Source: Moniliella sp. 'wahieum' (Eukaryota). Taken from it: a stretch of 64,000 bases of DNA. Below the pieces are notes generated by a model. That model made no database searches and was not told where the DNA came from. It was given only the letters and a program-made list of their open reading frames with translations. This document shows, piece by piece, positions 2,755-57,070 of this stretch; the first letter of the stretch is position 1; the number at the start of each line of letters is the position of its first letter. The position numbers and the translations under genes are program-made. The stretch covers positions 248,001 through 312,000 of the forward strand of contig RSEE01000027.1 in assembly GCA_003971905.1 (NCBI GenBank), given 5' to 3'.

Positions 2755-5700
2755 TTAGCGTCCACCACTGCGACGCTTGGAAAAGTAGTAGAGGATCAAG
2801 TCTTGCTGGCTCTGCGTAAGCGGATCGAGACCCGGAACAACTCGGTCGTCGACTGCAACTCCCGTGCTGCACTCAGCACAGTCGCGTTAGCCACTGCACG
2901 AACATCGGCCGCCTTGTGCAGCAGCCCAGCACGCAGGGGTCCGCGCAGACGTGGCAGCTCATCCTCAATCACCTCGGCTGGCATCTGCTCCAGCAGCTTG
3001 GCAAAGACTTGGAGGACCAGCTTGAGTACCGCCGCTCCGCTCACCGAATCGTCCTCCTCTGATGGGCAGTGGCTCACCAGGGTGCGCAAGCACAGCACCG
3101 AGTCGGTCTGGCTCGCCCAGGCACTGAGGATGCCTTCACAGGGTGCACCGTACCGTAACGGTTCTTGTGCCAGCGTCGAATCAAGCGCTAGCTGAACCAG
3201 TTGTCTTGCTGTCCCGACAGGGTGATCGCATCAATCGTGTGGTGCACAGCCAGTCGATGAAGAACAATGAGCGTAGCTAACGCCGGCTCAGCCGCGTTGG
3301 CCTAGAAACAAAAGGAAGAAGGTTAGCATGCACCTCGATAACACAAGAAAGCCGCCACGTACGTTAGCCTTGGCTCGAACCAAGTCAAACAAACACTGCA
3401 GTAGTTCGGCTGTAGCCGCGGGGTGCTGAGCAAGCGGGTGCGAATGGCCCATATCGTCCTGTGCAGGGTAGGACGCCCAACGGCTCAGCTTGCGGAACAA
3501 CCTGAGGTCCGGCTCGCCTTCGCGCAGCCGGTGCAGCCAATGTTCGACAGACTCCAGTTCATTCAGAGCGCGACGGTGCGACCTCGCTTTGTCCTGTACC
3601 GGTGGCTGTGGTGACGGCTGCAAATGCTGGTCCCCAGTCCCCGCCACAAAGGCTGTCCCTCGGGCAAGGAGCCACCTAAATCCGTTTCCGCCAGCACGGC
3701 ACAGGAGGTAGAGCCTCATTCCTTGGTGCGGTTACGGAAGTAAGTGTCGTGGCCGGCATCCCCACGATTAGTGTGGTCGTCCCATCCGAGCTGACAAAAC
3801 TCACTGGCCTTGCAGGGGGGTCCCCTTCAGGAGCGGGGGGGGCAGGATCAATGCCAAGTGTCACACCAGGAGCCGCGACCAGTTCCTTGGGAACGGGCGC
3901 AGGGGGGATGCAGCCTCCTCCATCGACACATCGGCCGAGGGCGCTAAAAGGGGGCTGGATGGCATCTCTCTTTGCCATTGCTCCACCTTAGATTCGGGAC
4001 TCACCATCTCATGGTGTCCCGAGGGGAAGGAGGCACTGCGTCCCATTGGATCACTGGTTCCGCAGGGGCTGCCTCCGAGACTGGCTTGCCTGAGCGCTCC
4101 TGGGCCATACGGGCCGAGGCAGCTCGCTTGGCCCGAAGCAAAGCGAGACTTGCGCCGGGGGCACGCCGAATGGTACTGCCTGCGGAGGTGACAGATGGGG
4201 CGCGCTTCCCTGGGTTGTCTCGTCCTCTGCTTCCTCGCGAGCCGAAAGATCATTCATCAATATCCCCTTGGTTTTGGGGTCAAGCTTGTTCAACAGCGCT
4301 TCGGCATCGCTGCGTGCGGGAGGCAAGGCATGGAACAGCCAGAATGATTTGCGGGCTTCAGCTCGAACGTCCTTGTTGGAGTCTACCAGTTCATTCCCAA
4401 TCACTTGAGCCATGGATTCAAGGTTGGCCCGGGCCAAGAACCTGGCCCGTCCCGCGCCATTGGCAGCAGTGGCGGCCAGCGCTGTTGATCCGGGGCGATA
4501 GGTGGAAAGGAGCAGCTTGGTGTACCTAGCCAATGCGATGCGGAGTTGAACGTTCTTGTCATTGACCAGGAATTGTAACGTATGGTAGTAGCCTGGGCGG
4601 AACGGGACGCATTGCAAAAGTGCGCCAATGGCCGTTTGGGCAGCATTGGCCGTCATCTTCTTGGTACCTCCACTGACCCGCAGCATTGCCGCAAGGAACA
4701 CATCGGCCACACCATTCTGGCCCAACTCGTCATTTAGGGCTACCAGAAGCTCCTCAACGAGGGCAATGGACTGGATCGCTAGAGTCGTCCGCAAGGTAGA
4801 CGCCTAAGTAACGCGCAAGGTCAGTCATCTGGATGGAAAGACAAGTGCTCCAAAAGGGTACTTACTGTCTTTGCAATCCCGTCTTGAATTAGGCGAATGT
4901 TGGCCGGTAAAGCACGCCGTACATCAGGTGGAAGCTCATGGCTGAGCAATCCTCGCAGCTTGAGAATGTCAGCCTGGCGTGGACCCCAGTTCTTTTCCGT
5001 CTCAACTCCTTCGAAATGAGGTTCCATGACCAAGAACATCCGATCCAACTCGCCCATGCTAGAGATGTAAGTGTGACTTTCCACACGGGGACCGATCGTC
5101 GGCGTATACTCCTTTGACGCCAAAGCGCGATCAGTGGCACCCGAGACGGGCTTGGACGCAGCCCGGTCCCCCGGGCCCGAGGCGGATGCCCCAGAGGCAA
5201 GGTCAACCATAAGCGACTCCACCAATGGCTTCCTAATTCCCTGCTTCTCCATTTCGCGGTGCAGCTCAGCACGAGCCAAGGGGGCAGTGCGAGAGAAAAT
5301 AGGCACAATGGCGGCCTTGGCAGCCTCGCGCACCTTGGCGTCGGCATCGGCGAGCGCAGTGACGAGGGGAGCAGTAAAGGGGCGATGGGGAAGGAGGAAT
5401 GAGCCTGTTTAATGGAGAGAAGAAGGGCCACGCTGGTTTCGCGGATACGGGGGTTCTTGGCGTGCAAAGCCTGGTCAATGTAGGTAGCAACAAACACATC
5501 CAGCGGGGTGTCCTGTGCACTTGCCCGGGCCGGCGGGAGGGTGAGGAAGAGCGACGACGAGCGCTGCCAGGGCCTGGACAGCCTCGGAAGCGGCTGTTTT
5601 GGTCTTGACCTTGGCATCGCCCAGCCGTTCAAAAGCAAGCGAGGCGGCGTGGTGGGTGAAGAAGCGGGCGAGACGGAGGGCATGGGCAACGAGGCCCGGC

Positions 5701-6905: not shown

Positions 6906-8272
6906 ATGGCGCGTGCGGCGCGCGATCCAACGGCCGCGCTGGCCATGGCGTGGCGCAAACAGCCTGACCGCAAGCCCAGCGAGCGCGATATGCTCTCCAT
7001 GTGGCCCGTCAGTAGCTGGCAGCTGTGCCGCAACTTTGTTCTCTCCCAGCTCGCCCTCCGCCCGCTGGCGCGCGTACCCACCCCCTCGTTGTCGGTGTCC
7101 AAGGCCCGCAAGGCAGTGGTGCGTCCGTTTCTGTTCCTGTTCTTCTCCCCGATTCTGCCGTGCGCACCCGATCCTTGTCTGTCGGACTAGCTGATGGGCT
7201 GGCCGGGCTGACCCAGCTGTACCACCTCTTCCAGGCAAGAGCACCCTCGTCCACCGTCTTGCTGCCGAACTGAGTTCGGGCGGATACCGTCTGCGCGTCG
7301 CAGTGCTGAGCATTGATGATCTGTACCTCCCCGCCGACATACTCGCACGCATGCGGGCAGCCGAACCGGACAATGCATTGCTGGCCGGGCGGGGGCTGCC
7401 GGGCACACATGACGTGGCGCTCGGCGAGAGAATCCTGCGCAATGTGCGCAACCTACCTCCGCTACCCCATGACGCCGCTGAGGATGAGGCGTACGACCCA
7501 GTCTACATCCAATCCGCCGAGGAGGCGCGCTTGCCCATGTACGACAAGGGAGCTTTAGACGGTCGGGGCGATCGATCGTCAATGCCGCACATCGTGCCCC
7601 GTCCCCGTCAATTGGACGTGTTCCTCATTGAGGGGTGGTGTCTCGGCTATGCACCGCTTGGTCCTGCGGGGGTGGCAAAGTGGTACGAAGAAGCGCAACG
7701 CAAAGCCGACGGGCGGAGTACGGGCACGCGTGCTGGACCACACGTTGGAACAACTGCAGGCAGTGGATGAGGCACTGGCCACGTATGCGCGACGCTGGTG
7801 CGTGTACCTTGATGCCCTAGTCCAGCTCTGGCCTGTGGTGGGGGAGCGGGCGGCACGGGAGGCAGGCAATGAAGCAGATGCTTCGCAGGCGGCCTGGAGC
7901 CATGTACATGATTGGCGGTTGGAGGGCGAACGCAAGCTGCGGAATGAGACGGGGCGAGGCATGGATGACGCCCAGACAGAGGCGTTCCTGGCACGATATA
8001 TGCCCGCTTATGAGTTGTGGGAGCGGAAGGCACGGTGGTGCCATTGGCGAAGCACTCAATGCTGGGCCCGAGCCCCTGAAACGGACCGAACAAGCATGTC
8101 GGGGGCGGACACAACATCTGACGGACCAGCTGTTGTTTCACGACCATCACGATCCGACTCGCTATCGGCGGAGGAGGAGGAGGAGGACCTGTTGCCGCAC
8201 ATGCCCCCCGCGCGCATTCTTCGGATCGACCTCAACGCGGAACGGTCGGTGGAAGAATGCTCGCTGCGCTAG
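6906..8272 (+). CDS. TDA10: Tda10-like / D-glycerate-kinase-like P-loop kinase
   Basis: VVGVQGPQGSG P-loop, VLSIDDLYL, GRGLPGTHD, PMYDKGALDGRGDR, FLIEGWCLG, WRLEGE...GM...F..RYMPAYE. Start codon uncertain. Confidence 0.82.
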
Positions 8273-14040: not shown

Positions 14041-14136
14041 TCTCCCCTCTGGGAGTCGAACCCAGGACATTCAGAGCGGAAGTGACTCCACGTGACCAAT
14101 TACAATCTGACGCTCTTCCAACTGAGCTAAGGAGAG
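14041..14136 (-). tRNA. tRNA-Tyr(GTA) with intron
   Basis: CTCTCCT-TA-GCTC AGTTGGAA GAGC-G-TCAGA TT GTA A [intron] C TCTGA-ATGTC-CTGGG TTCGACT CCCAG-AGGGGAG-A, followed by a T8 Pol III terminator. Confidence 0.95.
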
Positions 14137-26417: not shown

Positions 26418-26510
26418 CTCTCCTTAGCTCAGTTGGAAGAGCGTCAGATTGTAACTGGTTGCCTGCGGATATCCGCTCTGAATGTCCTGGGTTCGACTCC
26501 CAGGGGGAGA
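26418..26510 (+). tRNA. tRNA-Tyr(GTA) with intron
   Basis: Same exons as the copy at 14041-14136 except one base missing in the 3' acceptor strand (probably a sequencing error); intron sequence differs. Confidence 0.93.
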
Positions 26511-27640: not shown

Positions 27641-28790
27641 GTCTCTACTCGGGCCCTAGGGACACGCCTGCTTTCAAATAAAAGCCTTGATGCACATGCC
27701 CTGCCAACGACTGCTCTCGGGATAGGTGTGGAAGAAGGGTGACCTTGCCCAGGCCAAAAGACAGAACCCCTCCGTCTCATCCTGTCTTTTCGTCTACTAC
27801 GATGAGCAGATGATCTAGTGGCTCATGGACAATCAGCGATACGGCGGAGGAAATATGTGAGGGATGGAACAGCTACGTTTTCCTTGCGGTTGGATAGACA
27901 GAGAGGGGCCTGAAAGTTACTGGGTGGGAATGCTAAGGAGGAAACGATCCAGATTACAATTAGATGGGAACGGCCAAGCACATCAAGTACGAGACTATTA
28001 TGGGGGAGTGTTTGTCCCGACGGTCTTTACGGCTGGTGAGAATAGAGTCGTCCAACGCGGCAGATGCTTGCGCTTTGGTGCGACCGGGCCGGGGGCACGG
28101 CTCCCCGCCTTCGTCGGGTCTTTGCACTCCAGCTCTTTCGGGGCGCTTCGCATGGGATCGACGATCAACCTCTCGTCCCGATGCCCCCGTGGTTGGGGCT
28201 GAGGATACGATTGAGTTGTGGGGGGTGCACTAAGGACCTTGCCTAGTGTTGTCTTCGGCGTGTCCGCAGCTAAGTGTTCGGTGTCGTTAGCGTTTTCAGC
28301 ATTAGGTGTCTAGAAAAGATTATAGAGAGGCTATCAGGAAGGAAAACCGAGCCACAAATTACTTCAGTAGACGTGGGATGGCAGACCCGGTGCATCACCC
28401 GGCATCTTATGCCGGTGGACCAAGATTCTAATAGCCTGCGAACGACTGACGGGTACAGGGTTGACGCTCGCGATACTCAATGCATGTATACCTTGTGGAC
28501 AAGAACATGCTACTAAAGGGATTGTCGGGAACGAACACATGGACACAATCTGCAAATCTGTATGACAAACGGAGGGCGCAGACGTCATTTTGATGTGCAT
28601 GAGATTGATCTGTTTTACATGTTGTACAAGAAAGTGTTCAAGGGGAGGGGGGGTTGAGAAAGGCATGAAAAGGGTGCGGGAGCGTGCATGGAAAGGTGGA
28701 AGGTAGGCAGGTATGCGGCAACATGGAGTGCCGCTCCCTTGTCTACGCCCGAATGCAAATGAAAAAGATCGAGAGTGTCGACCGGAATAA

Positions 28791-29154
28791 TGCGTCCAGG
28801 GCAGGGACTGTCTTTTGAAATTGGGTGTTAGCATCCGGGAGATCAAGCCTTGGGCGCCGCTTGGAACTCTGCAAGCACATGCTTGATTAGCCGGAAAGCA
28901 TCGTAGATCTCGTCACGATGCTTAGCGCCGGTAAGAACGATCTTGCCCGAGACGAAAACGAGAAGAACAACCTGCGTCCAGGGCAGGGACTGTCTTTTGA
29001 AATTGGGTGTTAGCATCCGGGAGATCAAGCCTTGGGCGCCGCTTGGAACTCTGCAAGCACAGGCTTGATTAGCCGGAAAGCATCGTAGATCTCGTCACGA
29101 TGCTTAGCGCCGGTAAGAACGATCTTGCCCGAGACGAAAACGAGAAGAACAACC
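28791..29154 (-). repeat. 182-bp tandem duplication of the TBP C-terminal coding segment plus 3' UTR
   Basis: 28791-28972 and 28973-29154 are near-identical; the visible difference changes IKPV to IKHV. Confidence 0.93.
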
Positions 29155-32100
29155 TTGGGCTTCACCATACGGTAGATAAGACCAGGGAAGAGCTCAGGCT
29201 CGTACGAAGTAAAAGGGCCGTGCGAATAGGCCAGTCCCTCCAAGCGAATGGGGAAGCCAACATCACACGAGCCCACAATGTTCTGAATCTTGAATTCGGT
29301 AAACTTGGCTTCAAACCCCAGCTTCTGAACAATGCGCGCATACTTGCGATGGCCAAACGGCTGTCGTCCTCAGACTTGGCACTGTTACACCATCTTGCCC
29401 GAAGCAAAAAGCAAAGCAGTGGTCCGAGGCTCTCGAATACGCATAATAACCGCAGCAAACCGCTTGGGGTTTGTTGGCCTAGGGAGCCGGACGGGCAGAA
29501 GGATGAGGAGAAGGTGATGGATTGGAGCCAGAGTTGGGTCTGGGTACAGAGGCATCTATATAGGAGGCTGGACTAGGCACAGGGACAGTGAGTCACACAG
29601 GAGAGAGTGCAGGGCACAGGGACAGTGACACGCAGGGACGTCAGCGTGGAAGCCGATGGAACCGAGGCGAACCTGGTCTACCGACTGGGAGCCAGAGGAT
29701 CACAGTCAACACCCCCGCTGGCCAGGGAACCCGGAGACATCGGTTGTGGGATGAGCTCCTGCCAGTGGATGTAGAGAGGGGAGGACTTGAGTGGCAACCG
29801 GGACGAATGGCCTGGAGTTGTGCATGGCCACACGACTGGCCTACACCCCCTGTCCAGGATGACACCTGAACGAGCCGAGCGCTTGTGGTTGGTGTATTGT
29901 GCGACCGCCAGATGCTTGTAGAAGTCTTAGAAGTAAAAGTAGTAGGGGTTGCGCCCCGAAGCGATTTGGTGGGCAAAAGTAAAAAGCACCAGTTATAGGT
30001 GTAGTGAAGAAATTGGAAACTTGGAGTAAATGCGGTCCAAGGTCGTTTGGCATCAAAATTGGATGCGTTTGGTAGTTGTTTGGTTCCGCATGCCTGGTGC
30101 CAGTGGGGTCCATTGGGCATGGAATGAACGGGCGCTATGCGTCAACCGTCTTGATCTGTTTGGGTTCTCTTTGTTGTTGAAAAAGAGGAGTGGAAGAAGT
30201 TGGGGTGACACCCCCCCCATCCTTTCCCAGGTGCCCCGGATGAATTGGCAATCCGGGGCGTGTAGCCGTGGGTGGGGCACTTGATGAGCAGCCACCCCCG
30301 CTTTCTGCGATTCGCCTGCGCCGTTTTGGTCGTTGGAGGAATTTCGTCTCGTTGACGATACCCGACACGTTTTGTTCCGTCGTGTGTTTGTCCCTAAAAA
30401 TCATGCCCCATCTGTGGGGGACGAGTGTGCCGATTGTGGCGGTAGTATGCCGATTGTGGCGGTAGTATGCCGATTGTGGCGGTAAGGTGCCGATTGTGGC
30501 GTGGTGTTGTTGGGCGGGAGGACGGGTGTGTCTTGTGGGCTTGGCGGCTTAGCTTGGGCTTGTAGGCTTGGGGGTGGGCTTGCTTGAAGAGCGCTCCCCT
30601 TCCGGGGGATCAGATTGTAGCTCTGTTGGCCTAGGGAGCCGGACGGGCAGAAGGATGAGGAGAAGGTGATGGATTGGAGCCAGAGTTGGGTCTGGGTACA
30701 GAGGCATCTATATAGGAGGCTGGACTAGGCACAGGGACAGTGAGTCACACAGGAGAAGTGCAGGGCACAGGGACAGTGACACGCAGGGACGTCAGCGTGG
30801 AAGCCGATGGAACCGAGGCGAACCTGGTCTATACCACTGGGAGCCAGAGGATCACAGTCACACCCCCGCTGGCCAGGGAACCCGGAGCATCGGTTGTGGG
30901 ATGAGCTCCTGCCAGTGGATGTAGAGAGGGGGGACTTGAGTGGCAACCGGGACGAATGGCCTGGAGTTGTGCATGGCCACACGACTGGCCTACACCCCGC
31001 TGTCCAGGATGACACCTGAACGAGCCGAGCGCTGTGGTTGTGTATTGTGCGACCGCCAGATGCTTGTAGAAGTCTTAGAAGTAAAAGTAGGGGTTGCGCC
31101 CCGAAGCGATTTGGTGGGCAAAAGTAAAAAGCACCAGTTATAGGTGTAGTGAAAGAAATTGGAAACTTGGAGTAATGCGGTCCAAGGTCGTTTGGCATCA
31201 AAATTGGATGCGTTTGGTAGTTGTTTGGTTCCGCATGCCTGGTGCCAGTGGGTCCATTGGGCATGGGAAATGAACGGCGCTATGCGTCAACCGTCTTGAT
31301 CTGTTTGGGTTCTCTTTGTTGTTGAAAAAGAGAGTGGAAGAAGTTGGGTGACCACCCCCCCCATCTTTCCCCAGGTGCCCCGATGAATTGGCAATCCGGG
31401 GCGTGTAGCCGTGGGTGGGCACTTGATGAGCAGCCACCCCCTTTCTGCGATTCGCCTGCCTGCCCGTTTTGTCGTTGGAGGAATTTCGTCTCGTTGACGA
31501 TACCCGACACGTTTTGTTCCGTCGTGTGTTTCCCTAAAAATCATTGCCCATCTGTGGGGGCGAGTGTGCCGATTGTGGCGGTAGTATGCCGATTGTGGCG
31601 GTAGTATGCCGATTGTGGCGGTAAGGCGCCGATGTGGCGGTGGTGTTGTTGGGCGGGAGGACGGTGTGTCTTGTGGGCTTGGCGGCTAGCTTGGGCTTGT
31701 AGGCTTGGGGTGGGCTTGCTTGAGAGCGCTCCCTTCCGGGGGGATCAGATTGTAGCTCTGTTGGCCTAGGGAGCCGGACGGGCAGAAGGATGAGGAGAAT
31801 GTGATGGATTGGAGCCAGAGTTGGGTCTGGGTACAGAGGCATCTATATGAGGAGGCTGGACTAGGCACAGGGACAGTGAGTCACCAGGAGAAGTGCAGGG
31901 CACAGGGACAGTGACACGCAGGGACGTCAGCGTGGAAGCCGATGGAACCGAGGCGAACCTGGTCTACCGACTGGAGCCAGAGGATCACAGTCAACAGGGT
32001 TGTACTCGGCGTTGCGGGCACGGAGGGCAATCGTCTTGAGGTCCAAGCGCACTTCGAGGTTCACCGTCGCAACAATGTTTCTGCGCAGCAAGAACCAGTT

Positions 32101-32278
32101 GAGCTAGGGTGCCCAAGAGAGAATAGGACGGACTTACTGTAGCGTAGGCATAACCTCTGCTGGGCTACGGCCGGCGTCGCGCGGCGTAGCAGGAATGGCC
32201 GGGGCAGGGGACGAGCTGCTTTGCTGGGGCAGCGACGGGGGCCGACGGAGCGGCCCCAGGCAGGGCAAGGCTAGCCAT
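29025..32278 (-). CDS. SPT15: TATA-binding protein; coding exon interrupted by a 2.5-kb LTR element (possibly a pseudogene or disrupted allele)
   Basis: ATG 32278; [13 protein letters not shown] (intron 32081-32137); [17 protein letters not shown] [insertion] [26 protein letters not shown]...[24 protein letters not shown]...[34 protein letters not shown]. Confidence 0.92.
29472..31996 (-). mobile_element. Non-autonomous copia-like LTR retroelement (TRIM) in tandem form LTR-internal-LTR-internal-LTR
   Basis: Three ~240-bp LTRs (29472-29711, 30624-30862, 31759-31996) with TGTTG...CAACA outer ends. TSD GGGTT at 29467-29471 and 31997-32001. On the minus strand a PBS follows the LTR and a G-run PPT precedes it. 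Internal units of ~900 bp lack an RT ORF. Confidence 0.93.
30428..30500. repeat. 20-bp minisatellite inside the TRIM (second copy at about 31567-31640)
   Basis: About four copies of GCCGATTGTGGCGGTAGTAT. Confidence 0.85.
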
Positions 32279-32480
32279 GTTGGGCTGCGGGGGAGACCGA
32301 GGGCAGTGGGAAGACCGCTGGCGGCGAATAAGCGATGTGCGGGGAGGCTGGCGTGCACAACAGGACAGGTGTGGCGGGGGTCGCGTGGGGAGCGCAGACG
32401 AACCTGGGCGCTGAAATTTCAAAACCCACAGGAGGGAGGGCGAGCGAAAAGCGGGGGCGACCGCATCTGCCGCCGGTGCC

Positions 32481-32487
32481 TTTTATA
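32481..32487 (-). promoter_or_regulatory. Candidate TATA box of the TBP gene
   Basis: TATAAAA on the minus strand about 200 bp upstream of the ATG, in otherwise GC-rich DNA. Confidence 0.4.
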
Positions 32488-34199
32488 CGTTTGGCGACAT
32501 CACCGATGATATGCCATTCTGGTCGGTGATGGCGCGCGACACTGACAATTTTGCAGGGCAGCCACGCGCCAGTGTCTGGAGTCGCGGGGGAATCTGTGGT
32601 CCCGCACGGCGCCTGTGTCGCCTGCGTCGCCGCTGGCTGCTTTCAGACCAAGGGAGCCCGCCGCCTCTACCGCATCTCGTGGCACACGGGCAGTGTTGCG
32701 CGTGGGACGCGCAGCGGGGGCGAGGATGGGCAAAGCGCGGGAGAGAACGCGTCGCCCACACTGTCCCCATGCTGCTTCCGACTTCCGGGCAAGCTGCACG
32801 CGACGCGTAGCGCGTCCTCGCGTCAGATGCTGCTGCCCCTTGCTATCGGCGTGGGTAAGGCCGTCAGTGCGCGTGAGATGACGCGCTGACGTCTATCTGC
32901 GGGACCATCTCCCCGCACGCCCCAGTGAATCTCCCTCGCTCGTCCCCACCTTCCCTCATACCCAAAGAATGCGTTTGGCCCACCATCACGGCGCTATGTG
33001 GGCCCAACGATCTCGAGCTGATGCACCATAGCGACACCGAGTCCGTGTTTGTCGCTTTACTAGGATGCATGGATAGCCGCGTGTCACTTTAGTTCCTCTC
33101 TTTTCCAGGTGGAGATACTGAGCCAGCGCAGTCGCTTGGCTCTGAAGTCGTTCATGTTCGGCTCCCACCTTGTCATCTGACATCTCATCCAACACCCCTG
33201 TCCATATCTCCTGCATCTCCCCTGCGTCACCACCATCCTGCTCTTGCTTACCCTGCCCTACGGTATATATCCACATCAACCATGAAATGGTGTGGCCGTG
33301 CGTGGCAGCCACTTCAATGCGTTTGCCAGTTGCCAAAAGGTGCAGGAGCGGGAAAATCAAAAGCAGCGAGGAGATACAGGGAGGAGAGGGGGAACTTGGC
33401 TCCCGTCCCACAGGCATGTCCCTTGTCATCAAAAAGAAGATCCTGCCTCATCTGATGTTGATGTGGGGAAATCGACCCGGTGACTGACAGTGTTAAGTAG
33501 AGGGACAGATCAGGAGCCTGGGTCACACCGTTCGTGAGGGGGGCAGCGGGTGTCCTCAGGTGTTTAGAGCGAGGCCTGGTCCATCGCTCTCCCATCCAAG
33601 GTCGTGCGCCACCCAAACATATGTGCCTGGTCATCTTCCCCTATCCAACGGCCTAGGAGACTCGCCTCTTTCCTCCCCGCTCTAGGAGTCACGTCAGGAT
33701 GGTGCGTCAGGATGGTGCGACGCGATGGGTGCCGCTTCTTCTGTGCACCAATGGGGGCAGAGTGTCTGAACAAAAAAGTCCATCGACCTTCGCTGCGATC
33801 GATGAATGAATGAGGCTTTGCCCGACTGGAGGGACTCGAGCGTAGAGGAAAGAGGGACACGTATGCGGAAGGTGAGGAAAGATATGAGGGCATTTTCCTA
33901 CGAAACGGATCAGAAGTAGTGTGTGGACGGTCGAGCCGGGCAGTTGACTGTCGTTCGATAGGTGGACACATGGGCATGTGCAGTGCTCCACACACACTCG
34001 CGGTTGCGCTTCAACTGAGCTTCTTAGTTGGATGACGCTTCATGCAACACAGGATGGAGGGAAATCAATCCGCTCTGCCATACCGCAATGGAACCGATAG
34101 TATCCTCCGTGAGGGGTGTCAGATTTTGGGAACGCGGGAAATTTGGGAAGAAATTCAAATTCGGGCATTCGAGGAAGACTTGTTAGCTTCAACCTGGAA

Positions 34200-50300: not shown

Positions 50301-51112
50301 TTCGTATCCACACGCGCTATACTCTCAGCTCTCAGGTATGAAAACGGATGGCGGGTGTCAGAGGGTCCTGTTCGATGATCTACTGATCCTGGGTTCCACA
50401 CGCCGGATGAACAGGTGTGTTTAGACGCAGTGTTTCTTTGTCCAAGCCTTACATGTTACAGCTCAAGGCTCAAGGGCACAAGCTCTACTGTCAATGATAT
50501 GGCTGCGCCTGGCAGGAACCCTCTGAAAAATTCTATCAAAATACACCGATTTCTTTATTAGGGCTTAATGTTGTTACATGTTGGTAGGCAGAGGTTTTAT
50601 TACGGCCCGTTGAGACCAACTTCGCTCCGCTTTTTAGCTTCATCGCCACCACACAATGCCCACCGCCGCCCTGAAACACGTATGTGGCGATGCAGCGCTA
50701 AGCTGAGGCCCTGAGCCTGGCTCAACGTAGGTTCATGTATGCATGATGCTAGTCCACTACGTGCCCCATTTCGTACGAGTCTCTTGCCCAGGCAGCCACT
50801 GAATATCAGCCACGGGGCCTGGGACGGCGCGTCCTGGCTCACCGTGACGCGTGACGTATAATGGAGATGCAACCGGTGATTGGTAAATACGGTGTCACCG
50901 AATGACTAAGCTCGCTCCAATTTCCAATTCCGCATCCTGTGTCTCTCGCTCTTCCCTTCCCTTTTGCTTCTGTTCTCTGCCTGATGCCTTCTGTTTCCTC
51001 CCACGAACGATCTTGCCTTTCCCCCCGCCTCTGACAGGACCTTGGTCTCCCTCGTTTAGCCCCGACTGTTACATTATCGTTCGTCAACCCCAATCAGACG
51101 AGCCCGACCAAG

Positions 51113-52476
51113 ATGTCCGCGACCCCCGACCAGCAGAATCTCAGCAACCCTACCAGTAACCCCCCCGTGCGCCGCAGTGGCCGTTACGCATTGGATGCCT
51201 CGGATGATGGCGGCGATGGCGGCGGTGCTGGCGGTGGCGAGGAGGGCAGAATGGTACACCCCGCCGCTCCGATGGCCCAAGACCCATCTTCCATGGCTGG
51301 ACCCCCCGCTTCTGCAATCGCGCTGGACGAGTTGAATGATGCTCGCGCGGCTCGTCGGCTGCAGGCGGAGAAGCTCCGCGAGGAACGGGCCTACGAGGCC
51401 GAGAAGATTCGCGACGACAATGCCCACGAGGCCGAGAAGATTCGAGTCGATCGCGCCCACACTCAGTTCCGGCGGGAGGCCATGCTGGAGGAGAAACGGG
51501 CGGAGGCTGCAGCGGCTGTTGAGATGCTGCAGCTCTCACAGACGGCAGAGCAAGCGCGCGCTGCTGCTAGCGGTGGTCCCGCCAACGTGCAAGGCCCCGC
51601 CCTTTCCGCCTCCGAGAGCGCCCCGTCCCAGCCGGCACCCGCGTCTCGCGACCTCAAGATGTTCGAGCCTGTCCATTTCCGTCCGTCCTCCAGTGCTCAC
51701 CCCAGCAAGAGTGACCGCATCTCGGCTGAAGAGGTCGTTACTTCCTTTGAGATCTACGCCCGCGTCGCCCTCGGTCGCCACGTCGACGATGCGGAGAAGA
51801 TTGACCGGTTCATGGGATTGATGCAAGGCGAGGCGCTTCGGTGGCTCCGGCAGTACGGGTCGGAGCCCGAACTGCCGTTGGCTCAGCGCACCTCCCCTGA
51901 CCTCCAGTCGTGGCCTGCCTTTCGGACTGCGTTTTTGACCGAATGGGGTGAACGTAACCCGCAGCAGTCAGCGTATGTGGAGTATCGGGCGCTCACTCAG
52001 ACCGGGTCGGCTGCCGACTATGCCGCTCAATTTGTGCGTCTGCTGCGATGCTGGAGCCCCAATGCCCCTCATGAGCAGTACATTGGGACTTTCTGTATGG
52101 GCTGAAACCCAAGGTGCGAGACGGTCTTGCTGCTCGTGGTGAGTCTACACACGTCAATCGGCTGTCGTTTGAGCAGCTGCGCACTGCGGCCATCGATATC
52201 GACGAGTCCCAGACGTTGGGTATGCGCGGCGTTAGTAGGGCTTCTCAGGCTCCGAGCGGGAGCCAGTTTTTTCGGCCCTCGCCGGCCGAACCCGAGCCCA
52301 TGGACCTTAGCGCAGCCGAGGCGCAGGCCACAGAGAGAGCAGCACGATATCGGGAGCGCAGGGCGGAAGGATCCTGCTACTGTTGCGGCTCCCGTGACCA
52401 CCGCATCGCCCGCTGCCCGCTTGCCAGCTCGCCCCCGCCTCAACAGTCCGACTCCTCCACGGCTGGTGCTGTCTGA
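51113..52476 (+). CDS. gag: Gag (capsid + CCHC zinc knuckle)
   Basis: G.A..W, W..F...F..., LTQTGSAADYAAQF, FLYGLKPKVRD (after a 1-bp shift near 52080), PEPMDL, CYCCGSRDHRIARC. Confidence 0.9.
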
Positions 52477-55400
52477 GGCGGCCGTCGGGCCCAGTCGGCC
52501 TTCGCCTGGTTCTTTCACGGTACTTGTTCACTTGCGCCCTGGTTCTTCGTCCTCGTCCCCGTCCCCAGCTCCGATCCCGGTTCTTGCCCTGATTGACTCT
52601 GGTGCCAACAGCGTCTTTATGGATCGTGTCTTCGCTCACCGACACGGCCTGCTTGCCCATCCGCTGGAGTCGCCCTTGTCAGTCCGCGTAGTTGACGGAC
52701 GCCCCATCTCTTCGGGTCTGGTGACCCGGGCGGTGGAGGCATCCGTCGCGGTCGGCTCGCATGTGTCGACCGAGGAATTTTTCCTCACCTCCCTCCACCA
52801 TCCCTTGATTCTTGGCCTCCCCTTTCTCGAGGCCCACAACCCTTCCACCGACCCTCGCACACTTTGCATTTCGACAAACCGCAGTGCCGCGAGCATTGCC
52901 AACCCCAACCCAGCACCAGCACCAGCACCAGCACCAGCACCCGCCCCCGCACCACCAGCACCAGCACCAGCACCAGCACCAGCACCAGCATCTCCCCAAC
53001 CAGTTCCCCCCTCCCCCACATCCGCCGCAGTCCCCCTCTCAGCTTCCGTACCAGTCTGTGCCTCCACCTTCAAACCAGTCCCCCCTCCCCAAGGTACGCG
53101 TCTTCGCTCCTCACCTCCGGTACCACCCCTTCCCAGTCCTCCCTTCCCCTAGCGTGCCGATTGACCTCCTTTCCTTGGAACAGTTTGAAGGAGAGGTGGC
53201 CGCCGATCCCACACCGAGGTATGCGTTGCCCGTCCCAGTGACCCAGCTTTGGTCATTTCGTCTGTTTCCGTTGCAGAGGGTCCAGAGCCAGTGTTCCCTG
53301 ACGAGTTTGACACCCCGGAGTATGTCGACCACGTCCGGAAAACGGTGCCTACCCGCTACCATGCCTATCTTGATGCCTTCTCCAAGTCTGGCGCCAAGAC
53401 GCTTCCCACCCATCGTGCGGCCGACCATTCGATCGACCTCGTGCCCGGCGCTACTCCCACCTTCACTCGTCTCTATCCCCTCTCTACGGGCGAGATGGAT
53501 GCCCTGGGCCGTTGGATTGACGAAAATTTGGCCTCTGGGTTCATTCGCCCGTCTAAATCGCCGTTTGGGGCGGGTGTTCTCTTTGTTAAGAAGAAGGATG
53601 GCTCGCTCCGACTGTGTGTAGACTATCGTGCTCTCAACTCCATTACCATCAAGAATCGTATGGCCCTCCCCTTGATTAGTGACTCGCTCGATCGCTTGTC
53701 CGGGGCTCGCGTTTTTACCAAGCTTGACCTCCGTGGGGCGTACAACCTTTTGAGGGTCAAGGAGGGCGATGAGTACAAGACGGCTTTTCGTACCCGGTAT
53801 GGTCACTTTGAGTCGCTCGTCATGCCGTTCGGTCTCTGTAACGCGCCCGCCACTTTCCAAGCCATAATGAATGATCTCCTCCGGGACTCCTCGACGTCTC
53901 GGTGCTGGCATATTTGGACGATATTTTGGTATTCTCGTCGGACGAGAAGGCACACGAGGAGCATGTTGCCGAGGTGTTGCGGCGTCTGCAGCGCGCAAGG
54001 CTTTACCTTAATCCGGACAAGTGCCAGTTCCACACATCCCAGACTGAGTATTTGGGCTATGTCGTTTCGCCCACGGGGATCGGAATGGATCCTGCTAAGG
54101 TGGAAGCGATCAAAGCATGGCCGACGCCCAAGACCAGTCGCCAAGTTCAGGTGTTCCTTGGGTTTGCCAATTACTATCGCCACTTCATTCGCTCCTATGC
54201 CCGCATTTCGGCACCCCTTTCCGACCTCACCCGCAAGACACAGCGGTTTGATTGGACGCCTGCCTGCCAAAGCGCCTTCGACGACCTCAAGAGGGCCTTC
54301 GCTTCTCCCCATGTCATTTGCCATTTTGACCCCAGTCGGCCACTCCGCATTGAGACTGACGCATCGGATGCCGCCTTGGGTGCCGTGCTGGCCCAGCAGG
54401 ACAAACATGGTCGTTGGCGGCCTGTCGCCTTCCATTCCCGCAAGCTTGTCGCAGCCGAACTCAACTATACCACGTCTGAGAAGGAGGTGCTTGCCATTGT
54501 GGCGGCCGTCGAAGTGTGGCGCCACTATGTTGAGAGCGTCGATACGGTCCAGGTGCTTACGGACCACGAGGCGATCGCTACCTTCCGCCGGCCGCGCCTC
54601 CTGAACCGCCGGCAGGGCCGGTGGCGTCAGACCTTGTCGCCCTACCGGTTACTCATGGTGTATCGCTCCGGGACGAAGAATGCTGCCGCTGATGGCTTGT
54701 CCCGTCGCCCCGATCTTTCCATCGGCTCTCGCCCTGCCGAGGCTGCCCCCCAGACCCTGCTGGAGCCTGTCTCTGAGCGTTCGGCTGCTGTGCTCGAGCT
54801 CATGTCCACTCAGCCCGACGCGCCGTTGGTGGCGCGCTTGTCGGCCGACGAGATCCAGCAGCGCATCCGCGACTTGGTGCCCCGCGCCCCCGTTGGGCCG
54901 TTGCGATCTCCCCGCGACCCCCCCCTCATGCTCTTACCGTTCGCGATGGCTCCTGTGGCATGGGGAGCAGATCTATGTCCCCCCGATGCCCTCTCCGCGC
55001 GGCTGTCCTTTTCCAGGCCCACGACTCCGCGCTGGCAGGACACGAAGGGCGGGACAAGACTCGGTTGCGTGTGCGGTCGCAGTATTGGTGGCCCCGCCTG
55101 TCGGCCGACGTGTGGGCATATGTGCGCTCTTGCGACCGTTGTCAGCGGACCAAAGTGCCGCGGCGTCCTCCCGCTGGCTTGCTTCAACCCTTGGCCCCAC
55201 CTCAAGGCCCGTGGACTCATTTAACGATGGATCACATCACCCAGCTTCCACCCTCGAAGGGGTTCGATGCCATCTTGGTCGTGGTGGACAGGTTCACTAA
55301 GATGGCGCATTTCATTCCTGCCCACACAACGGACACGGCGCCGCGGCTTGCCCACCAGTTTGTTCACCACGTTTTCCGCTACCATGGGTTGCCGCGCGAC

Positions 55401-56344
55401 TTGGTCAGCGACCGTGGTCCTACCTTTACGAGCCACTTTTGGAGGGCCCTGTGCAGTGACTTGGGCATCCACTCGAGCCTCAGCACGGCGTATCACCCCC
55501 AATCGGACGGGCACGACGGAGAGAGTGAACCAGGTGCTCGAGCAGTACCTTCGTTGCTACCTGGATGAGCAGCAGTCAAACTGGATTGATCTTCTTCCCA
55601 CGGCCGAGTTTGCTTACAACTCTTCTCCCCACTCCAGCACAGGCGCGTCCCCCTTTTTCCTTACGTATGGCTACTCGCCCCGCGGTGAGTTGGCGGCTGC
55701 GTCGTCGGCCGTGCCGGACGCTGCATCGTACCTCGAGGGCCTCCGCTCGGCCCAGGCCGTAGCTCGGAAGACGCTGGCCGCTGCCCAGGAGCGGTATCGG
55801 CACTACGCTGATCAGCATCGCACCGAGGCCGACACCTTTGAAGTTGATCAACCGGTTTTGGTTCGGCGCGATGGCTACTTCTCCACCCAACGTCCCTCCG
55901 ACGGGTTGGATTATCGCTACCTTGGTCCCTTTCCCATTGTCCGTGCTGTCGGACGTGCTGCGTACCAGGTTCGCTTGCCTGATTGGCTTCACATTCACGA
56001 TGTGTTCCACCTCTCCCGGTTGCGCGCCTATAGCCCAGGCGACGAGGTCTCTAACCGCTTGGTCGAGCCCCCTCCCCCCCTTCCCGAGTATGCCGACGGG
56101 GGCGTTCATCACGAGGTCCAAGAGGTTCTTGACTCCCGCCGTAAGGGTCGCGGTGGACGTCTCGAGTACTTTGTCCATTTCCGAGGCTACCCGGTCCACG
56201 AGCGGGAGTGGGTGCCAGCCGCGGACATGTCCCACGACGCCGACCCGGTGGTTCGTTTCCATGCGATGTACCCGACAAGCCTGTTTCCCGCTCCCGTCGC
56301 ATTGCCCTTGCCCGCCTCCTCCGAAGCCGGGGAGGTGAGGTCTG
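52477..56344 (+). CDS. pol: Pol polyprotein (protease, RT, RNase H, integrase, chromodomain), with frameshifts
   Basis: [62 protein letters not shown] (H..AGH..CDRC); [37 protein letters not shown]. Confidence 0.93.
52910..52990 (+). repeat. (CCAGCA)n microsatellite encoding (Pro-Ala)n between protease and RT
   Basis: Two runs of CCAGCA, in frame with the protease ORF (PAPAPA...). Confidence 0.9.
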
Positions 56345-56699
56345 AAAGGGGGCAATGTCACCGAATGACTAAGCTCGCTCCAATTTCCAATTCCGCATCC
56401 TGTGTCTCTCTCTTCCCTTCCCTTTTGCTTCTGTTCTCTGCCTGATGCCTTCTGTTTCCTCCCACGAACGATCTTGCCTTTCCCCCCGCCTCTGACAGGA
56501 CCTTGGTCTCCCTCGTTTAGCCCCGACTGTTACAAACGGCAGCCGGGGTACCCTGTACCCGGAAACCAGAAACCTTTGGCGAATAAGAGAAGCGGAACCT
56601 ACCCCCAAAAACCCCGCCAGCCACCCCTCCCCGCTGTTCTTTGTTGGAAGTTGGACCTAGCTGTCCCGCTTAGCCTGACAGCGACGCGCGCCCTCCGTC

Positions 56700-57070
56700 T
56701 TTGTTCAACGTTCAACGTTCAACGTTCAACGTGTTCAACTGATTTGTCGATCTGTTTGAGGAGATGGGGTCGGTCAGCGCTGCTCAGCGCTGAGGCTCAG
56801 CGCTCAGGCCGCCAACCGGGCACACGTCGTTTTGACGTGTTGACGCCGCGGATGCCGAACATTGGGCACATATTCAGCTCGCAGACGGTTGTTTTCCCAG
56901 ACGGTTGTCTAGCGGTGGACACATTGGTCGGCCGGGGGACTGTCGAATACATTGTATCTGAAACACGCTCTCCGTCTTCACGTGCATCACGCGTGATGGT
57001 CACATGTCACATGTCACATGTCACTGTCACGGTGCCTGACGCGTAACGCGTAACGCGTGTAACTAGTTAC
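56700..57070. repeat. Third (TNA + 4-bp palindrome) micro-array cluster
   Basis: (TCA-ACGT)x4 (56705); TCA-GCGC-TCA (56797); (TCA-CATG)x3 (57000); TGA-CGCG-TAA-CGCG-TAA (57037); TAA-CTAG-TTA (57060). Confidence 0.85.

Follow-up and report, generated by a model that had tools for sequence, protein, structure and literature searches.

The window analysed here comprises 64,000 nucleotides of contig RSEE01000027.1 (positions 248,001 to 312,000, forward strand; assembly GCA_003971905.1) from Moniliella sp. 'wahieum'. Its minus strand carries a gene for the TATA-binding protein (TBP), which is interrupted within its second exon by a retroelement (Table 1). The contig holding the window is designated C27 and the allelic contig C5, while L-numbers denote genomic regions fetched around matches. 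Exon 2 is broken after GAG TAC AAC CC (31997) and reading resumes with AACCC CAAG CGG TTT at 29471, which splits the motif YNP|KRF. The insert (29472-31996, minus strand, 2525 bp) begins with TGTTG and ends with CAACA. A single AACCC is found at the empty site of the allele on C5 and of four other TBP loci in the assembly, and the two flanking AACCC copies are therefore a true target-site duplication made by the insertion. An initial annotation of this DNA had described a 2525-bp insertion splitting YNPKR in the orientation of the gene, with an AACCC duplication; the junction sequence and the empty C5 allele confirmed this description and its coordinates. The primer-binding site and the purine tract both lie on the minus strand, and the element is thus co-oriented with TBP. 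In keeping with the empty C5 allele, the insertion appears to be haplotype-specific.

The insert is a tandem array (L3I2) in which three long terminal repeats (LTRs) of 238-240 bp alternate with two internal units of ~0.9 kb. Its initial annotation as a retroelement is supported. No retrotransposon coding domain was detected: the 12 internal frames of 92-184 amino acids gave no Pfam match better than E 0.15. ARAGORN found no tRNA in the element, and an Rfam search up to E 10 matched neither tRNA nor 5S RNA. The element has the features of TRIMs (miniature terminal-repeat retrotransposons) and of their tandemly arrayed forms (TA-TRIMs), namely (i) TG...CA terminal repeats, (ii) a 5-bp duplication, (iii) a primer site, (iv) a purine tract, (v) no coding capacity, and (vi) an L3I2 array under one duplication. 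Because its monomer of ~1400 bp exceeds the classical TRIM limit of 1000 bp, we refer to it as TRIM-like and do not file it as a strict TRIM. Within TBP, the first unit has G and the second A at site 138, a family polymorphism at which 7 of 80 copies carry G. This difference favours a real array derived from two templates over the doubling of one unit by the assembler. Internal unit 2 also contains a cryptic purine tract upstream of internal position 779.

Downstream of the insertion, the 3' end of TBP is duplicated in tandem over 182 bp. The first TBP stop is preserved by this duplication, which is absent from the C5 allele and thus specific to this haplotype.

Table 1. Coordinates of the interrupted TBP gene, the element and related features in the window
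Feature	Position	Strand	Remarks
TBP exon 1	32138..32278	-	ATG at 32278; N-terminus variable; small indels, probably assembly errors
Native TBP intron	32081..32137	-	57 nt, GTAAGT...CAG; same position in all six TBP copies
TBP exon 2, portion 5' of the insertion	31997..32080	-	NIVATV...AEYNP
Target-site duplication AACCC, upstream copy	31997..32001	-	
5' LTR	31759..31996	-	TGTTGAC...CCAACA; 238 nt as assembled, family length 240
Primer-binding site 1, GAGCTACAATCTGA	31745..31758	-	pairs at 13/14 positions with the spliced tRNA-Tyr(GUA) anticodon arm, canonical intron cut assumed
Internal unit 1, non-coding	30863..31758	-	G at family-polymorphic site 138; 3' end is the purine tract ...GGCCAGCGGGGG
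Shared middle LTR	30624..30862	-	
Internal unit 2, non-coding	29712..30623	-	primer site 30610-30623; purine tract 29712-29725; A at site 138
3' LTR	29472..29711	-	TATA-like CTATATAG at 29563, then ATG at 29555, in the reading frame of the TBP C-terminal part
Target-site duplication AACCC, downstream copy	29467..29471	-	
TBP exon 2, portion 3' of the insertion	29025..29471	-	NPKRF... to TGA at 29025
182-bp tandem duplication of the TBP 3' end	28791-28972 / 28973-29154		one substitution between copies
Intron-containing tRNA-Tyr(GUA) gene	about 26418..26510	+	among the sources of the likely primer
Second intron-containing tRNA-Tyr(GUA) gene	14041..14136	-	

TBP copies and genome layout

The initial annotation had supposed, as one of several options, that another TBP copy or allele exists and had named a search of the assembly as a check. 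This search, performed with the C-terminal half of TBP, identified six loci on six contigs (C27, C5, C57, C67, C59 and C56), which form three diverged pairs. All five loci other than C27 are empty at the insertion site. On C56 and C59, TBP has no indel from the ATG to the stop across the GT-AG intron. The core of the C27 copy carries two small deletions (2 nt and 1 nt in exon 2 relative to C59), probably assembly errors. Comparison of C27 with C5 revealed 8 synonymous and no non-synonymous differences in the 149 codons compared, which indicates that the C27 gene was under purifying selection until recently. Within the pairs, 5-9 synonymous and 0-1 non-synonymous codons were counted; between pairs the numbers were 47-72 and 0-2, respectively (137-176 codons compared). 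The TBP core shows 99% identity to the protein of Tilletiaria anomala and 88-91% to other named smut, bunt and rust proteins. The C27 copy had been regarded initially as somewhat divergent, on account of the residues GFPIRL and KHRDEIY. This view did not hold, and a divergent paralog was rejected: the same residues occur in all six copies and in T. anomala, in addition to the absence of any non-synonymous change relative to the allele.

The entire window aligns colinearly with contig C5, with 3.2% substitutions over 49.6 kb, and divergence within the three TBP pairs over 21-50 kb amounts to 3.2%, 2.8-3.5% and 3.0%. A chromodomain-bearing Ty3/gypsy element (window positions about 50900-56700) is present on C27 and absent from C5. 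Genome-wide copy number was assessed with four informative families; a cyclin search matched a multigene family and was uninformative in this respect. EMG1 and PRMT5, which are normally single-copy genes, were each found at five loci. These fall into three lineages that differ by 19-35% in alignable sequence, with pairs 1.3-4.1% apart. The EMG1 pair on C32 and C44 looks faster-evolving than that on C179 and C64. TBP and its neighbour, which we take to be an ATP synthase subunit h-like gene, are syntenic in all three lineages according to strict tblastx. One Copia family differs by only 0-1 substitution in 2.95 kb among C5, C56 and C59, and by 7-8 substitutions from the copy on C67. On C56, C59 and C67 this family occurs as an insert in one haplotype only, the allele being empty and the flanks colinear. 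The presence of such near-identical young inserts in all three lineages suggests that the lineages share a cell.

Signs of gene loss were also found. Of three candidates for the CLASP gene (window positions 4054-5408) across the assembly, two matched, one on C27 and one on the allelic C5, and the 130-kb stretches fetched from C56 and C57 showed no relic of it. An EMG1 copy on C4 (L139, 1492-1800) is dead: its frame contains a stop, and 48 codons of the core are deleted. One gene common to C56 and C57 does not occur in the colinear part of C27. The assembly of 69.5 Mb equals 2 x 3 x 11.6 Mb. The genome of T. anomala is roughly 19 Mb; the 11.6 Mb per set is much smaller, which fits either fractionation or a partial collapse of the assembly.

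On balance, we favour an ancient three-way polyploid genome in a smut relative, in which subgenomes 19-35% apart are losing duplicates and each exists in two haplotypes ~3% apart. An ongoing Copia/TRIM burst would then be hitting redundant essential genes, and the TBP insertion would be fractionation in the act. Among the titles and abstract openings that literature searches gave, none described a triplicated genome of this kind for the group.

Alternatively, the TBP pairs could stem from three fungi in a mixed sample, with the insertion heterozygous in one species and sheltered only by the C5 allele. The distance of 19-35% between the EMG1 and PRMT5 lineages, the presence of three lineages for each of these genes, and the small extent of C56-lineage synteny would all suit a mixture. 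We nevertheless regard it as unlikely. Against it stand the single Copia family with 0-1 or 7-8 substitutions in 2.95 kb and its haplotype-specific inserts, the CLASP gene found in one pair only, the third EMG1 copy with its disrupted core, and the about equal divergence within all three pairs.

Element family, priming and candidate helper

A census of the element was started from 81 of 102 primer-site matches (2 were unlisted, 2 lay in the window and 17 beside Copia reverse transcriptase matches were set aside) and from 17 of 46 variant matches. Among the 79 regions fetched, 10 held no copy; the window was added to the set. For the LTR, 284 candidate places were counted across the genome; of the 41 matches listed, 40 are 100% identical. 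The census yielded 71 elements with an internal part, 18 of them with three or more LTRs. Both ends are complete in 56 elements, and 45 of these have an exact 5-bp duplication, for which the chance per element is ~1 in 1000 (4^-5).

The age of the family was examined by pairwise comparison with one natural copy, counting only substitutions away from indels. The 80 full internal copies (920 nt) contain 18 clean substitutions, 12 of which fall at two shared sites, and 8 clean substitutions were counted in 160 LTRs. The resulting ~14 private changes in 112 kb are ~250x below the 3.2% divergence of C27 and C5. The element family is thus very young, and its burst postdates the split of the haplotypes by far.

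A 2565-bp three-LTR copy of the small element is also present on C56, where the C59 allele is empty. A Pfam scan of the element flanks covered 214 stop-free frames, which are short and error-broken; the scan is insensitive, and its three matches are consequently a floor and not a rate. An Iso_dh frame (isocitrate/isopropylmalate dehydrogenase) adjoins an element at L176:2112-2441 on C2, a second housekeeping gene hit. A match to an FAD-binding oxidoreductase adjoins a partial element, and one to a fatty-acid hydroxylase, below its cut-off, adjoins another.

Several variant arrangements were observed in the family. At L176:588, L201:2267 and L237:2268 (also inside L208 and L232), elements start 134 nt early at TGTAGG. 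This start sits behind the cryptic purine tract GGACAGGGGG at internal position 779, and two of the three have an exact 5-bp duplication there. The early starts probably represent plus-strand priming at the second purine tract, giving an extended end that still integrated. In L175 and L179, two complete elements lie head to tail (LTR-internal-LTR-LTR-internal-LTR) under a single 5-bp duplication, which suggests the integration of copies joined end to end. At L093:1902-1964 and 7523-7554 (C16), a different Copia family is nested in a copy of the small element's LTR.

Each LTR is followed by GAGCTACAATCTGA. If the tRNA-Tyr intron is cut at the canonical place, 13 of the 14 positions of this site pair with the anticodon arm, in a stretch that ends at tRNA position 40, compared to 5 of 14 with the tRNA 3' end. 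A T opposite tRNA position 37, found in 5 of 80 units, extends the pairing to 14 of 14. A tRNA pattern with G at position 37 before the intron matched no site in the genome. A looser tRNA-Tyr pattern matched 30 sites (3 in a reversed control), 29 of them of the intron-containing tRNA-Tyr form and two within the window; 19 of the 20 tRNA-Tyr loci fetched were read out. Both window genes are mislabelled by ARAGORN (as tRNA-??? and tRNA-Leu), and their loop, UU-GUA-AC, is unusual. At the site facing position 37, C and T are mixed within one array (L226), and other Copia families in this genome have T. Primer-templated reversion could explain the mixture, as could a G or inosine at position 37. 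Priming by a tRNA-Tyr half was initially considered a novelty; this idea was dropped, as such priming is already described in PMC10886601.

Judging from shared sequence signals, the likely helper of the small element is a Copia family of 5.3 kb, whose three copies differ from one another by 3-6 clean substitutions. The two have in common the 14-nt primer site and 21 nt comprising the purine tract and the LTR start. The pol frame of the candidate spans 1160 amino acids, with Pfam domains in the Copia order Pol_BBD-rve-SH3-RVT_2.

These family data also bear on whether the filled site could be an assembly artefact or be confined to few cells. The assembly is rich in errors and the junctions have no independent read coverage, yet we consider this explanation quite improbable. 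The LTR ends are exact, as is the 5-bp duplication relative to the empty allele, a pattern seen in 45 of the 56 complete members of the family. Site 138, which is polymorphic in the family, differs between the two units, and the flanks belong to a separate haplotype, 3.2% from C5 over 49.6 kb. A search of one short-read DNA run over positions 28500-33000 gave two contigs of 143 and 151 nt, both within the element. The run contains the joint between primer site and LTR, which shows that the element itself is real DNA.

Fate of the interrupted gene and known systems

The initial annotation had further proposed that the element might be spliced out, by joining a weak donor, CCT|GTTGAC, to the acceptor CAAG|CGG. 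In that case the allele would give near-normal TBP. All GT-AG pairs from -30 to +60 nt of the 5' junction and from -60 to +30 nt of the 3' junction were scanned, and four of them preserve the frame. The proposed joint is one of the four: as had been stated, it restores the frame with the loss of one Lys, removing an intron of 2533 nt. A second pair, CGA|GTACAA to a TAG in the LTR end, which is preceded by a pyrimidine-rich stretch, would change only Y to PT. The other two insert LTR residues. The donors are weak, with 4, 3, 2 and 2 of 6 matches to the donor consensus GTRAGT (2 of 6 for CCT|GTTGAC), compared to GTAAGT in the native intron. The best-scoring donor, GTCGGT, is in frame only through a 1-nt deletion that the 3' LTR lacks. 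No YTRAY branch-point match was found in the 80 nt before the junction, and a consensus donor, branch point and acceptor do not occur together at the junctions. The motif YNPKRF is unchanged in 23 of 23 full-length alignment rows and in the yeast TBP chains compared, and the Lys that the proposed joint would remove is invariant in all 23. The candidate introns measure 2470-2533 nt, compared to 24-1899 nt (mean 170) among the 1111 introns of Ustilago maydis given as supported by expressed sequence tags in PMC2219887. With five empty TBP copies in the assembly there is no need for a rescue by splicing, and we consider it very improbable that the allele makes near-normal TBP in this way, although trace splicing is conceivable.

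It is scarcely credible that a transcript read out from the co-oriented 3' LTR, with its TATA-like box (29563) and in-frame ATGs in the LTR (29555) and TBP (29444), yields an N-terminally truncated TBP with a regulatory or dominant-negative effect, since the LTR ATG lies immediately behind the TATA box, and thus probably upstream of the transcription start site, and the product would be without the first strand and helix of the TBP saddle.

Taken together, the data argue, with a probability that we put at about 85%, for a very recent, haplotype-specific insertion of a TRIM-like, Copia-dependent element into one of six TBP copies, most likely creating a null allele hidden by redundancy. The enzymes that copied the element, a reverse transcriptase and an integrase, would have come from a co-resident Copia family, with the 5' half of spliced tRNA-Tyr as the likely primer; the AACCC duplication of 5 bp would be the work of this integrase. 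Recombination at the LTR between two copies of the element, either during insertion or later, likely gave rise to the tandem structure. Transcripts that start at the TBP promoter are predicted to terminate within the element or to run into a stop, and the C27 allele would give no functional TBP. The fungus likely lives on its other TBP copies and not on splicing the element out, and this redundancy likely goes back to three old subgenomes, each in two haplotypes.

Several observations weigh against this interpretation or parts of it. The core of the direct allele on C5 has four 1-nt deletions, and its intactness is presumed; the C67 core has four indels, and C57 has one 3-nt insertion in the core and a 1-nt gap in exon 1. 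The assembly as a whole is rich in indels: near-identical element copies average 8.7 indel events per 920 nt, and 362 of their 548 deletions are single bases in runs. The TBP frameshifts are therefore probably read errors. The short-read contigs cover neither a junction nor TBP, and the difference at site 138 could also result from a recurrent change or a systematic read error. With regard to priming, the mismatch in GAGCTACAATCTGA faces tRNA position 37, where 75 of 80 units have C. The LTR body of the candidate helper is only faintly alike (score -20; the highest among 300 shuffles was -24), and no Pfam match was obtained for its gag region. For the three-subgenome layout, synteny of C56 is limited to a small block around TBP within stretches of 114-130 kb, and rearrangement between separate species would give the same picture.

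It should be noted that the assembly error rate is very uneven: five copies of one long Copia family (L067-L083) show 0-7 indel columns in 2.95 kb, and copies of the small element (L170-L248) ~12 per kb.

The insertion is ordinary in itself, as a spare copy was broken by an element of known design with a published mode of priming. Its value is that of a marker: even TBP appears dispensable copy by copy in this genome, and the insertion led to the evidence for a layout of three subgenomes and two haplotypes with live retrotransposition. If this layout is correct, the fungus would be a rare system showing gene loss after polyploidy at both ends, from the old, dead EMG1 copy to the brand-new TBP knockout. 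Any finding of a broken essential gene in this genome should first be checked against the five or six copies. A literature search found no paper on a retrotransposon insertion in TBP with homeologs.

The closest structural parallel is provided by the TA-TRIMs of plants, for which Gao et al. 2016 (PMC4717578) describe arrays of three LTRs (L3I2) under one duplication and report that 22% of TRIM subfamilies are 1000 bp or more. The account in PMC11899658 leaves the origin of tandem LTR retrotransposons open between unequal LTR recombination and insertion of a tandem copy. Like the plant TA-TRIMs as presented in PMC4717578, the element in TBP is a non-coding LTR element with a primer site, a purine tract, a 5-bp duplication and a putative Copia helper. 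It differs from them in its monomer of ~1.4 kb, its basidiomycete host, and a helper that shares cis-signals and not the LTR body.

Priming at the loop bearing the tRNA-Tyr anticodon has been described for the rust families Copia-50_PHord and Helenus (Kojima 2024, PMC10886601), and the anticodon-arm primer site found here resembles that of Copia-50_PHord and of Helenus elements of the tRNA-Tyr type. Membership in Helenus, as characterized there, was rejected because the LTR of our element contains no tRNA-derived sequence; in addition, its host lies outside Pucciniales and its internal region is long.

At the genome level, redundant homeologs under selection, with single copies lost or disrupted, are also described in the reports on the uninucleate Rhizoctonia JN (PMC7884421) and on hybrids of Malassezia furfur (PMC9040865). 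The Rhizoctonia hybrid is presented as having two subgenomes, whereas the genome studied here appears to contain three much older lineages (19-35% apart), each in two haplotypes and with signs of advanced gene loss.

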